The notes beneath the pieces were generated by a model. The model made no database searches and was not told the DNA's origin. It saw only the letters and a list, made by a program, of their open reading frames with translations. From Eledone cirrhosa (Eukaryota): 64,000 nt of DNA. The stretch lies in assembly GCA_964016885.1 (NCBI GenBank), contig OZ024755.1, positions 28,396,001 to 28,460,000 on the forward strand, given 5' to 3'. The number at the start of each line of letters is the position of its first letter. Within the stretch, counting starts at the first letter, position 1. The translations under genes and the position numbers were made by a program. Shown here in pieces: positions 11,405-49,925 of the stretch.

Positions 11405-11578
11405 TAGGAACGAGTAGGACCCCGACGGCTGAGCTCAAGCCGTTTCGACGGCTAATTCTGGACTAAATCTAGATTTAGTCCAGAATTAGCCGTCGGGGTC
11501 CTACTCGTTCTTATTACCCACTCTACTACCCTAAGTATTGAGTACTTTGGTGCGTTATGGTCCACATTTCCTCCCGTT
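11405..11578. mobile_element. Family A fold-back insert in (TA)n
   Basis: Short minus arm starting ataggaacgag, centre tctaga, long plus arm with gtattgagtac; internal deletions. Confidence 0.8.
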
Positions 11579-11789
11579 ATATATATATATATATATATAT
11601 ATATATATATATATATATGCAACAAAAGCAAATACTACATCTACTAGTATCATACGGAAGCATTGAAATAATTATAATGAATGTACGCTTTATGTAATCG
11701 CAGCACCTTTCTTAATGTTATTCTGATACTGAATTTCCATCTTAACTCACTACGAATGCAAAGAGCTTTCTTGTGCTTACCAAAACAAC

Positions 11790-12281
11790 TGTAGTGACCT
11801 ACATTCCGCGGGCTCACATACATTCTCTGTGCGTGATTTGGCTCAGCTCAGCCAATCAGCGCCAGTAGAAGAGGATGTATCCCTACGCGTTCTGAGGGAG
11901 AAATAGCCCGCAAAGATTTGAGGACGCCACCACTTCCAAGCTAGACGACTTCCAGGCTATATGACTCGCAGCTTCGACCGTGCTAAGGTAAACAACCATT
12001 TTTCTTGCGCCGTGAAATCACTAGCCAATATGTAACACAACGATTTAACCACGGCCTGGCAACGCTTCTCTCAGCCAGTAGCCCGTGTCTTTCTGGAATC
12101 TTAATTCGTTTGTTTAATTTCTCTTGGCATGCCAGCTCAACCTTTGTTAATAAATAACGTAAAAACAAGCTAAAGTCGTGGTCGATATTCCTATCATATC
12201 TTTCTACCAAACCTGGTTCCTCGTGGCAACCTTACCAACTTCTAAATACTTCTCCGCTAAATTGGTGACTTATATACTACA
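11790..12281 (+). mobile_element. Possible solo LTR
   Basis: TGTAGT...ACTACA termini, CCAAT near 11851, TATA-like ggctatat near 11955, AATAAA near 12150 and PBS-like tggtgac at 12263. No matching TSD. Confidence 0.35.
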
Positions 12282-13465
12282 AAGAGAAACATTCATTTCC
12301 TTTACAACTTTTACTGAACACACACATATACACACACACACAAACACACACACACAAACACAAACACACACACACACACATATAGTTATAATGAAAGAGA
12401 GAGAGAGAGAGAGAGAGATAGAGAGATAGAGAGAGAGAGAGAGAGAGAGAGAGAGAGAGTAAGAGACAACGTGATCAATTAGATTATCATTTGATCCCCC
12501 TTTCATCACATTCAAATCAGTTGAGATCAGTATGACATAAGAGATTATTAACATCTGTATAGGAACTCAGTTATTTTCCTTAAAGTATGGAATTACCTGA
12601 TATATCGACACAGTTGACACACAGACGTACGAAATAATGCATTACGATGTATCAGTAATTTTTCTTTGATACATATTATGCTTACCAAACTAATTATACT
12701 AGATTAACTACATCTAATGTCTTCCATAATTTGTCATATTTGATTATACCGTTGCTGTTGATAATTATGAAACGAACCTAACAGGAAACAAATATGGTCA
12801 CTCTTTTGTCGAGAAATTATAGTAGTGCTAACTAAATATCTGAGCCTGATCGAGCCATTCCCAACTCGATGCGAGAGCTTCTGATATAATGATTACTAAC
12901 GAGGCTCTATGTGATAAAAAAAACATATGTTGATGACCTCTAATAATATGCGTACATGCATAAACAAACGCATACTTATATATGTCATAACTATTCCTTA
13001 TATATTTACCGACCATCAGGCAGGATGTGAAATGAAAAAAAGGAAGAATCATTTGCGTATAATAGTAATAATAATAATAATAATAATAATAATAATAATA
13101 ATAATAATAATAATAATAATAATAATAATCTGCCCTTTGACACAAGTGTGCAAGAAAAGCAGTAGGAGAAAATTAACCGATTCTAGGATGTAAAGTGAGA
13201 ATTTAAATGCGCTGTTATGAGATCAAGGTCGACCCCATTATCATAGGAGCACAAGGTACTATCTCGAAGAGTTTTCAAGGACGGTTAAAGAACATTAGTT
13301 CAGCCCTCTTTTTTGGAACACTTCAATAGGCATGCTTGCTGAGAACAGCAACAACCAGCCGATACGTCCTGAATATCCGAAGCAGCAGGTAGCGGTTTGA
13401 TCTTCATTAGAACAAACTTTACACTTAAATAACATCAATGACTGAGACTCCATGAAAATAATAAT

Positions 13466-13655
13466 AATTGTTTCTACTTTTGGCACCAGGCCAGCAATTA
13501 CCCCCAGCGTATTACTGGTATTTTATGTTATCGATCCCGTAAGGATGAAAGGCAAAGTTAACCTTGGCGGGATTTGAACTCAGACCGTAAAGGGACGTAA
13601 TTATGCTGGAAAGCATGGTGTTCGACCCCCTACCGATATTGCCAATTCACCGCCC
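13466..13655 (-). mobile_element. Meta-domain SINE
   Basis: Full copy with the tail running into (AAT)n; ctccatgaaaataataataat is present on both flanks (TSD-like). Confidence 0.85.
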
Positions 13656-46620: not shown

Positions 46621-47111
46621 ATGTACACCATAGTTTTCTTTTAGTCGGTATATACACAGTATCACATGTATATGTCTATAAATTGTGTGTCAGTGAGGTT
46701 TTGTTTCGTATGCAAGTTTTGTTTTCTTGTGCAGCGACGTGACGTGTACACACAAACACACATAATCGCGCACACACACACACACACACACAAACACACA
46801 CAATCGCGCGCACACACACACACACACAAACACACATAATCGCGCGCACACACACACACACACACACACACACACACACACACACACACACACACACACA
46901 CACAAACATAATCACTCACACACACAGACACACATAATCACTCACAAACACACATAATCACTCACACACACAAAATCACTCACACACACAAACACACATA
47001 ATCACACACAAACACACATAATCACACACATAATCACACACAAACACATAATCACACACATACACACATACACACATACACACACATATATATATATGTA
47101 TATAGATAGAT

Positions 47112-47970
47112 ATGTTTCTTTATCTGCCACAAGGCCGCAAAAAGATGGGGACAAATACAGAGTGGGGAGTTTACATACATGCGTGTAAAAAAATAGAATG
47201 AATAAAAATATCAAATAACAAATAACAATTAACAATTGAAATCCCCGATAGGGGGCGAGGCGTTACACATGGGTTGTACAGACCCCGAAAAAATGTACAA
47301 CCCTCATCTCCAGGAGCACCAAGAGTTAGCTCTAGATAGATAGATTGAAAGAGGGAGAGGGAAAGAGTTGATATATAGATTGTTGCATAGAAAGGTTTTG
47401 AAATGCATTGATAGCTACCTAGCAAGCTAGCTAGTTGGATGGATAATTTCATAAACACATTGATAGATAGATATATTTCTTTATTTGCCACAAGGGCGCA
47501 CAAGAATAGGGGACAATACAAAGACACATGCCGGGGATTTTACATACAGTCGTGTAAAAATATTGAAACAAACAATTATAACAATCGAAATCCCCAATAG
47601 GGGGGAAGCGCCACAAATGGGTTGTTTAATACCCCGTCGATAGAACAACCCTCAACTTCAGGAGCGTGTTGTGCAAGTGCGCCCTTCTTCCTTTTGCTCT
47701 CTTCTTTAACCTACAGGCTTATACAGAGAGAAGGCCCAATCACTCGGGCCATTTTCGCTTCATTCACCAACTCTTCAGTAAATTTACTGGGGTGCAGTGC
47801 CTCTCTCTCTCCACTCTGATTCTCCTTCTAAAGTGATACTTAAAGAAGGGAATCAATTGTTGTCCGGAAAGAATGGTATATGTCCTCAGTCCTCTCAATC
47901 CCGCCCACCTTATAACCTCTTTCACCATAGCCCCTGTACAGAGGATAACCGCCGCTCTTTCCTTTTTGAA
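47112..47970 (-). mobile_element. Two Tx1/L1-like 3' fragments at GATA sites (47112-47330, 47473-47970)
   Basis: Translation FKKERAAVILCTGAMVKEVIRWAGLRG.. aligns with the 40408-40665 peptide; both 3' ends run into (tatc)n. Confidence 0.65.
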
Positions 47971-49157
47971 AGAGACAGACATACAGAGAAATAGAGAGAG
48001 AGGTGGAGAGATAGAGAGATAGGTAGAGAGAGAAGTAAATGGGTAGATAGATAGAGTGAGAGATAGATAGATAAATAGACAGACAGATAGACGCAGTGAT
48101 AGAGATAAAGGTAGAGAGAGAGGTAGATAGCTAGATAGAGATAGATAGATAGATAGATAGATAGATAGATAGATAGATAGATAGATGGATAGATAGATAG
48201 ATAGATAGATAGAGAGAGAGAGAGATAGGTGAATATATATATGCATGTATTTGTATGTTTACCTATCTATATTTTTGTATATGTTTGTGTGCGATCGTTA
48301 ATATATATATATATATATATATATATACACACACACACACACATATATATATATATATATATATATATATATATATATATATATATATATATACACACAC
48401 ACACACACACACATATATATATATATATATATATATATATATATATACACACACACACACACATATATATATATATGTGTATATATATATGCACACACAT
48501 ATATATATATATATACACACATATATATATATATATACATATATATATATTTATGTATATAGATATATAACTATACATACGTACACACACATACACACAT
48601 ACACACATATATAGATATATCATAGTATGTATGTCTGCATGACTACATGGATTATTCGATTGGTGGAATGGCGCAATCTGAGACAGTGTGTGTTCATAAA
48701 TATCGGATTTTCATATACTGATTTCATGTTGAGATGTGCTTCCATGTGCCTGAATCTTGGCTACGTTACGTACGAGTGTATGTACACAAGTTTATGCACG
48801 TATTCACACACACACACACACACACACATATATATATATATGTATAAGTTTGTATGTACATGTTTGCACCAAGGAACACCTTGATTGTGTTAGCATGTAT
48901 GCGTTGATGTAATATTTATGTGTAATGTACCATGTGAATGAGTTGTTTGCCTGTAGACTTTTTAATGTGTTTACAGATGAACTCCTGGCCCACATATAAA
49001 CTGTGCATCACAATACAATATATATGATGTATTCATTCATACAATAAAACATACATACATAAACACACACACACACATATATATATGTATGTGTGTATAT
49101 ATATATATATATATATATATATATATATATATATATATATATATATATATATATATA

Positions 49158-49925
49158 TAGGAACGAGTAGGACCCCGACGGCTGACCTCAAGCCGTTTCG
49201 ACGGCTAATTCTGGACTGAATTAGCCGTCGAAACGGCTTGAGCTCAGCCGTCGGGGTCCTACTCGTTCCTATTACCCACTCTGCTACCCTAAGTATTGAG
49301 TACTTTGGTCTGTTATGGTCCACCTGGTTCCTTACCACATTTCCTTCGTTATATATATATATATATGAAAACATTCAGGACCCCGACGGCTGAGCTCCGG
49401 CCGTTTCGACAGCTAGAACCGAGTTCGGAACGAGCTGTTGAAACGGCCAGACCTCAGCCGTCGGGGTCCTCAATCTTTTCATATTACCCACTCTAGTTGT
49501 ACTACCTCAAGTATCTAGTACTCTGGTTTTTAATACATGTATATATATATATATATATATATATATATATATATATATATATATATATATATATATAGAG
49601 AGAGAGAGAGAGAGAGAGAGACAGAGATATTAAAACAACCGATTAAAGTTTAAGCAAAAAATCGCTGCTTTCACCCTTAACAGGGTGTTCTGAAACTAAA
49701 AAAATCAATCTGTGACCGCAGAAGTAAATATATATATATATATATATATATATAAGATAAGTTATTCCGGGTTGAATCGGAGGTGACCACGGTAAGTAAG
49801 TTACTCAATACATAGCAGAGTGTAAAAGTTTTAATATAGAAGAGCTTCTACAGGTCTAGAACTGTTTCATTCGTGAGAAATCCTCAGAGAGCTACCTGTA
49901 GAAGCTCTTCTATATTAAGACTAAT
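49158..49925. mobile_element. Four consecutive hammerhead-family inserts: A (49158-49350), A-variant (49362-49535), D (49628-49730), B (49753-49925)
   Basis: Fold-back hairpins separated by (TA)n. The B copy has CTGAGGA-tttctcacgaat-GAAACAG..CTGTA on minus (49843-49893). Confidence 0.8.

Follow-up and report, generated by a model that had tools for sequence, protein, structure and literature searches.

Fixed short and long ends of fold-back inserts from a Penelope-like element in Eledone cirrhosa and their reading as double priming on one RNA

Penelope-like elements (PLEs) of the Hydra clade, as characterised in PMC8557442, are about 3 kb long and target (TA)n, encoding a protein with an RWK-like motif (RW(K/R)), DKT in place of DKG, a CxCX5C linker and a GIY-YIG endonuclease (EN) lacking CCHH. 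Their pseudo-long terminal repeats (pLTRs) carry a hammerhead, with an inverted copy at the 5′ end and a tail that is usually present at one end only. A 64,000-nt stretch of the (TA)n-rich, 3.0-Gb genome of Eledone cirrhosa (the window) contains fold-back inserts whose parent, judged by its motifs, is a PLE of this clade alike in each of these respects, except that the tail is about 80 nt here as against 30–40 nt in the described elements and that the hammerhead core of the main family, A, is non-canonical. Almost every two-arm insert in our sample, at sizes from 0.1 to 7 kb, has one short (S) and one long (L) end, these being the two ends of the known Penelope tail of inverted pLTRs, an identity overlooked in a preliminary description of the window. 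The tail has been ascribed to EN-mediated resolution, with no short/long pairing rule given in the parts of that paper compared here (PMC8557442). The best reading of the inserts, to which we give a probability of about 0.65, is double priming on one uncleaved sense RNA.

Two internal starts of the reverse transcriptase (RT) have already been shown in vitro for Poseidon PAc of Anolis (PMC11167929), in which they bound the tail, both strands of an AT-rich target being cut and extended on an uncleaved RNA template with the start tied to a stem-loop. The starts in that system are non-homologous to the DNA, and the sections covered report no strand difference or pairing rule (PMC11167929), whereas here TAT stands at both family A starts, the ends of one insert are mutually exclusive and the tail lies in the 5′ untranslated region. 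The Penelope of Adineta vaga likewise has head-to-head inverted pLTRs with the tail on one of them and a TATA box and initiator within the pLTR, but was interpreted as self-priming on an antisense template (PMC3846280); two sense-templated cDNAs account better for the junctions described here. Inversion of pLTRs with the tail on one side only is already published (PMC3846280, PMC8557442), and because the arm ends delimit the published tail with its two in-vitro RT starts, both the elements and the tail are known. In the literature searched on PLEs, subscription structure papers and supplements being outside its scope, we found no near-strict short/long pairing, no arms with common private variants, no arm 5′ ends at a TATA/initiator-like site, no hairpin 3–6 nt 3′ of both starts and no hairpin-set double priming, while the part covered of one preprint (bioRxiv 10.64898/2026.07.22.740005) holds no statement of short/long exclusion or hairpin-set double priming.

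Arms of family A and its subfamily B were found by a profile search, with a model of the element, over the window and 118 loci of 10 kb (1.244 Mb in total), 50 of these loci being same-contig neighbours and the choice blind to end type but non-random. Two 2-nt windows 80 nt apart take 124 of the 177 arm ends, with 63 at model positions 112–113 (the short end) and 61 at 192–193 (the long end), while 43 arms have other endpoints, 19 of them at 195–199. The (TA)n target of the Hydra clade is evident in the TA tract at the end of 167 arms, with 10 lacking one. The two fixed endpoints of the preliminary description, as opposed to uniform scatter, are therefore upheld, and all 13 of its coordinates lie at the junctions it described, long arms ending ..TTCCTTCGT followed by TATA at 3492, 16008, 34216, 42536 and 49350, and short arms ending ..CCTAT or ..CATAT and merging with (TA)n at 11405, 15618, 15897, 34033, 39626, 42743, 49158 and 49362. 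Both endpoints do lie 3′ of the GUC, the short end by 17–20 nt (model 96 versus 113–116). This GUC is not an established cleavage site in families A and B because the hammerhead core is degenerate there, CAGAAWTA or CGGAWCNA replacing CUGANGA, with a U4 variant in family C and the canonical CUGAUGA/GAAA/GUC in family D. No hammerhead was among the Rfam matches listed (150 of 439), which held repeat-driven miRNA-like matches below the gathering score instead. Family B (49363) proved to be a subfamily of A. The pLTR of family A comprises the hammerhead-like motif and the 80-nt tail, and its copies in the window are as follows.

49158..49217 (minus strand): family A short arm, bounded by the initiator-like A (49217) and the short start (CCTAT meeting the TA tract), with the hammerhead-like motif between them
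49218..49350 (plus strand): family A long arm, with GUC at 49250-49252, short-site TAT at 49270-49272, the 80-nt tail and the long start at 49350
49278..49303 (plus strand): hairpin H1, with a 4-bp plus 3-bp stem, a 2-nt 3′ bulge and then AC, 5 nt 3′ of the short start
49363..49527: subfamily B fold-back, a short arm and a longer arm stopping early in the tail; 7 of 52 arm positions differ
3321..3491: family A long+long fold-back, its fold showing 4 nt of microhomology
11405..11578: family A short+long fold-back; the 5′ point is reached by the short arm and the long arm alike, the latter with a 25-nt internal deletion
15500..15619: family A/B short+long insert, arms without overlap
15897..16008: family A short+long insert; the long arm is tail only, hence arms without overlap
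20259..20319 (minus strand): subfamily B single arm to the short start
34033..34216: family A short+long fold-back
39492..39626: family A/B short+long insert, arms without overlap and junction rearranged
41857..42000 (minus strand): family A single long arm, to the 5′ point
42537..42743: family A short+long fold-back, arms identical at 52 of 52 positions
63847..63945 (minus strand): family A single long arm, 5′-truncated

The 177 arms make up 113 inserts in the window and loci, among which 14 are short-only and 24 long-only single arms and 64 are two-armed, all 64 having been classed by reading. Fifty-seven of these are short+long, two long+long and none short+short, the five others comprising three short arms joined to an arm with a different tail endpoint and two interrupted inserts. 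For the 59 clean pairs an independent choice by each arm predicts 29.5 short+long, 15.8 long+long and 13.8 short+short (P ~3e-15). The preliminary description had claimed the same asymmetry for its families D, E and F, labels that it left undefined; under the labels used here it holds in family D (18 of 19 two-arm inserts among those listed, L216:394 being short+short), family C (6 of 7), family E (5 of 5) and family H (5 of 5 among inserts with readable ends), while the insert ending at 3492 (3321–3491) is an exception, being long+long. In a young family D set, retrieved from the genome with family D sequence up to the short site, all ten fetched head-to-head pairs of 100%-identical copies are short+long with arm ends 0.1–6.9 kb apart. 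The same complementarity extends to the seven 3-kb family A inserts that have an inverted 5′ arm and whose 3′ end could be read, among which L182, L188, L191 and L192 are cleanly complementary and L195 and L115 nearly so, with L187 ending at another site; no 3′ end was found for the inverted arms of L179 and L186. The pairing is a real and highly non-random feature of a known element class.

Were only the long site to prime, the second arm being made long, shortened to the short site through cutting or trimming by EN or repair and then joined to the other target end, the absence of short+short and the rarity of long+long inserts would be accounted for directly. Craig et al. propose that the tail arises by EN-mediated resolution (PMC8557442), and the short site of family A has a TAT like the target. 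However, a short-site end is seen in many 3-kb inserts for which no inverted arm was detected (L181, L184, L185, L189), family D short ends occur with just a 1-nt TA overlap, the same hairpin lies 3′ of both sites and another PLE starts RT at both tail boundaries in vitro (PMC11167929), such that trimming from a single start is considered unlikely.

How the long end is joined to the coding part of the element was visible in rare copies. The 27-mer of the family A long end followed by AT has 26,655 exact matches genome-wide, while 15 copies have non-TA bases after the long end and two of these continue into common sequence encoding RT. With 30 further copies fetched and 20 stretches extended, the long end was seen to read through in L111, L115 and further parent copies into an open reading frame (ORF) with YRDD, giving a parent of about 3 kb with the layout pLTR (hammerhead-like motif and tail), ORF, pLTR; partial tandems, an inverted 5′ pLTR and an optional tail are all present among the copies. 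Natural, unrepaired copies carry RWRTFF, DKTG, YRDDG, CNCPDRSTC and VIY..YIG without CCHH, the last lying 3′ of the RT in several copies and indicating, by motif only, a C-terminal GIY-YIG endonuclease whose core has no internal cysteine pair in the copies displayed (a GIY-YIG family search returned 150 places in 25 loci). Homologues of the ORF are unnamed proteins of 693–756 aa with 36–39% identity; seven ORF pieces gave no Pfam family at cut-off and a PDB sequence search nothing significant. Because these motifs match the features reported for it (PMC8557442), the parent is placed in the Hydra clade, and the cognate RT/GIY-YIG element presupposed by the preliminary description does exist. 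The Neptune clade, which needs a CX2-5CxxC linker and CCHH, was dropped, the parent motifs having neither. In L180 (oriented 2886–4700) a family A parent copy contains a nested second, divergent Hydra-like ORF whose linker differs in sequence, and L160, L166 and L178 (contig C28) have one inverted-arm junction in common, from endonuclease-region sequence to tail, so that the whole rearranged insert was duplicated or re-copied.

Inverted repeats, TA flanks and a copy number as high as that of the 27-mer are also what a miniature inverted-repeat transposable element (MITE) or other DNA transposon with terminal inverted repeats would offer, and an assembly artefact at TA tracts might produce similar folds. 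The equal terminal repeats and constant interior of a MITE are absent, the arms being unequal and the junctions unique, while the pLTR is continuous with the RT ORF and young copies of 100% identity are dispersed in different flanks. Parent read-through and unequal pairing already refute transposon and artefact alike, leaving them a negligible probability, in agreement with the earlier rejection of MITEs. A non-LTR retrozyme was also rejected, as such elements form tandem arrays of a cleaved circular unit while family A inserts are single units spanning the GUC.

The arms fail to overlap in 9 of the 57 short+long inserts by our reading. In L191, L179 and L186 the inverted arm has sequence missing from the adjoining direct copy, and was therefore not copied from the end of the first cDNA. 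Both observations bear on snap-back or self-priming, in which one cDNA folds and is copied back until TA microhomology joins the second target end, a class that includes the antisense self-priming proposed for rotifer elements (PMC3846280). The near-identity of the arms is what such copying would give, and the long+long insert at 3321–3491 has 4-nt microhomology at its fold. The non-overlapping and odd inverted arms nevertheless disfavour snap-back unless later deletions produced them, the complete-arm junctions of 1–4 nt have no room for a priming hairpin and the short/long complementarity of kb-sized inserts is left unexplained. Snap-back is very unlikely as a general account and probably explains only the few long+long cases.

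Comparison of the two arms within inserts favours one template for both. Across a subfamily block, 31 of 48 inserts have at most one mismatch between their arms (permuted mean 5.8, maximum 12), three of the 48 being mis-aligned non-overlapping inserts that count against the match. In the young family D set, 3 of 10 pairs have private substitutions common to both arms (four substitutions in total), with one pair differing by a single inserted base. A dimeric protein carrying two RNAs, each half priming one strand at a different fixed site, would give overlapping arms without strand displacement; a dimer is predicted for the anole PLE protein (PMC11167929) and one of the 48 inserts appears chimeric. 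Two equivalent RNAs would, however, have no reason to avoid the same site, and subfamily and private variants are common to the arms, though two RNAs of one locus would also match. Priming on two RNAs is accordingly held to be quite unlikely.

At the short start the parent sequence is ..CC-TAT-T.. and at the long start ..GT-TAT-C.., so that in family A 3 nt of TA pairing are possible at both, in line with the preliminary description. The template has four TATs, yet those at model positions 138 and 158 take only 2 of the 167 TA-flanked ends. In family D the commonest short end has a 1-nt template overlap when the long arm has a T or G allele (L072, L095, L212, L229), with other inserts using a TAT 7 nt earlier and the youngest copies (A allele) having the TAT restored, while the short end of family E mostly shows a 1-nt overlap in register. 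TA microhomology, to which the preliminary description had given the choice of site, is real in family A, yet neither sufficient nor necessary; given the unused TATs and the 1-nt overlaps, TA pairing adjusts the site without determining it. No read-through parent of family D was found, the two matches each being only 3–4 nt longer and suggesting a TAT at its long end. In L242 the 1.5 kb upstream of a young family D pLTR is long, simple-repeat-rich, non-coding sequence, from which this very young unit may be non-autonomous.

In L1 twin priming the second site is variable and chosen by microhomology, and the arms hardly overlap. With fixed internal sites, unused TATs, 1-nt overlaps and mostly overlapping arms, the inserts described here depart from that pattern and an L1-type process was rejected. 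The likeness lies in both strands priming on one RNA with head-to-head joining of the cDNAs (twin priming is named in PMC4859970), and the non-overlapping inserts here look the same.

A small hairpin recurs at the starts, with a stem of 4 bp and 3–4 bp, a 2-nt bulge and then AC. It stands 5 nt 3′ of the family A short TAT, 3 nt 3′ of the long TAT (the twin hairpin H2 in parent copies) and 5 nt 3′ of the main family D short end, and given the overlap ambiguity a spacing of 5–6 nt fits all three starts. The loops differ, the outer pair is A-U or G-C and double-sided changes occur between families. A descriptor of the hairpin finds 81 sites as against 2–6 in five shuffles, which, the descriptor having been built from the same sequences, speaks for recurrence and not function. 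Twin RNA hairpins, more than TA base-pairing, are the likely determinant of the start points. A further family in the sample loci carries the hairpin with TGT/ACA for TAC/GTA (about 9 sites).

A third fixed point, not mentioned in the preliminary description, is the common 5′ position at which arms stop, as taken from direct sequence reading. Of the intact-core arms (n = 49), 16 agree with the parent exactly as far as the A of AGTC, a further 16 extend 1–6 nt past it (3 of these being ends of longer copies) and 17 match less, the GTAC-variant subfamily included. The initiator consensus is YYANWYY; in the parent this A lies inside such an initiator-like sequence with TATTTAT 31 nt upstream, and family D has TATAAATA at −30. 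The 19 junctions at which both arms are complete are all different, mostly A-run/T-run fillers, with three C..G and one single base. In L039:7345–7579 and L068:3084–3186 the two arms are separated at the fold junction by a (TA)n run, which suggests that target DNA was captured or that two events abut. In L264/L265 a family D insert has one 23-nt non-repetitive flank sequence on either side, reading outward each time, which is an inverted duplication of target DNA.

Since most arms run through the GUC, their template was uncleaved. Minimal hammerheads of PLEs are likewise known as thousands of dispersed motifs from truncated elements, including some close opposite-strand pairs, with cleavage and circular templates being proposed for them (PMC4209133), in contrast to the uncleaved template of most arms here. 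Arms starting exactly at the family A GUC gave 44 TA-flanked matches; a start one base downstream gave 3, and of the 55 matches with a start one base upstream about 20 were TA-flanked, the search patterns being non-equivalent.

In the proposed course of double priming, the two strands of a cut (TA)n tract would prime RT on a single uncleaved sense RNA, one strand using the short start and the other the long start, the small hairpin 3–6 nt 3′ of each start presumably binding one RT/EN unit and acting as a ruler while 1–4 nt of TA pairing would aid priming but not choose the site. Primers on the 5′-most pLTR would yield two cDNAs that run off at its start (the initiator-like A, with the TATA-like sequence at −30/−31), gain a few untemplated bases and are then joined head to head by repair; primers on a downstream pLTR would give kb-long inserts with an inverted 5′ arm. 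The long cDNA would have to displace the short one, a stall giving non-overlapping arms. Separately made cDNAs joined head to head were already the proposal of the preliminary description and remain the best model, with site choice moved from TA microhomology to RNA structure. The fuller scheme of programmed double priming in PLEs, with a capped, uncleaved RNA, twin hairpins each positioning one RT/EN unit and two staggered fixed-start cDNAs per insertion, is put forward tentatively.

Several observations count against double priming on one RNA or its parts. The evidence is all fossil, and two long+long family A/B inserts and one short+short family D insert exist. Non-overlapping arms could equally be later one-sided deletions of a palindrome, while common variants could reflect gene conversion within the palindrome or the use of two RNAs transcribed at one locus. 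L216:5037 is apparently chimeric, its arms being of different subfamilies (1 in 48), and the older family A inserts lend little support, with just 2 of 28 private variants in both arms, a low sharing that post-insertion mutation explains. The ruler hairpin was identified in families A and D and not for C, E or H. As to the cap, untemplated G is a mark of capped templates in L1 (PMC4859970), and the base at TA-flanked arm starts is G in 91 and C in 9 (100 of 181 arms listed, by eye). The background of G after ATATAT is 84%, giving P ~0.03, and without the flank filter the matches listed hold 48 G, 44 C and 8 A; because of this high background and mixed list the cap-G signature was downgraded and is suggestive only.

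The remaining families, under our own labels, and other repeats of the window are as follows.

42756..42944: family D short+long fold-back with the H1 hairpin as in family A and the canonical hammerhead core (42815)
49758..49922: family D short+long fold-back
23319..23466: family D short+long fold-back whose short end continues into a GA repeat
20579..20720: family C insert (CAGAAGA-core hammerhead variant), a short arm and a partial inverted long arm
42219..42291 (plus strand): family C single short arm
1705-1749, 39742-39812, 49628-49727: further family C single short arms
1122-1251: family C long arm
3171..3257 (plus strand): family E arm to its short site, no hammerhead seen
844-900, 3549-3634, 41385-41466: further family E arms
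55566..55913: family H fold-back with a long and a short arm, in which no hammerhead was seen
4715-6960, 13448-13659, 19797-20156, 22581-22881, 24993-25328, 53376-55338, 57647-57775: SINE-like repeat

This repeat, resembling a short interspersed nuclear element (SINE), is about 130–170 nt long, reaches a coverage of 23–25 in self-comparison of the window and often forms short head-to-tail tandems. More low-copy fold-back or TA-flanked elements of similar look lie at 2398-2687, 24239-24490, 27936-28158, 28216-28616 and 24894-24979. Unrelated to the fold-backs are decayed RT ORF copies of a non-LTR retrotransposon at 16248-18000 (minus strand) and 49988-51620 (plus strand), which from their motifs we take to be RTE-like, with a short 3′ fragment of the same retrotransposon at 15682-15752.

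The origin of the tandem and inverted insertions of PLEs and of their one-sided tail has been called unresolved (PMC8557442, PMC11167929). Short/long exclusion, common variants and hairpin spacing make sharp predictions for the existing in-vitro PLE assay, and for annotation it matters that the genome's tens of thousands of hairpins with an apparent likeness to MITEs or miRNAs are products of short retrotransposition events. If true, programmed double priming would explain in one step the features by which the group is defined, namely its partial tandems, inverted pLTR and tail, and the tens of thousands of fold-backs would be a fossil record of the priming reaction.

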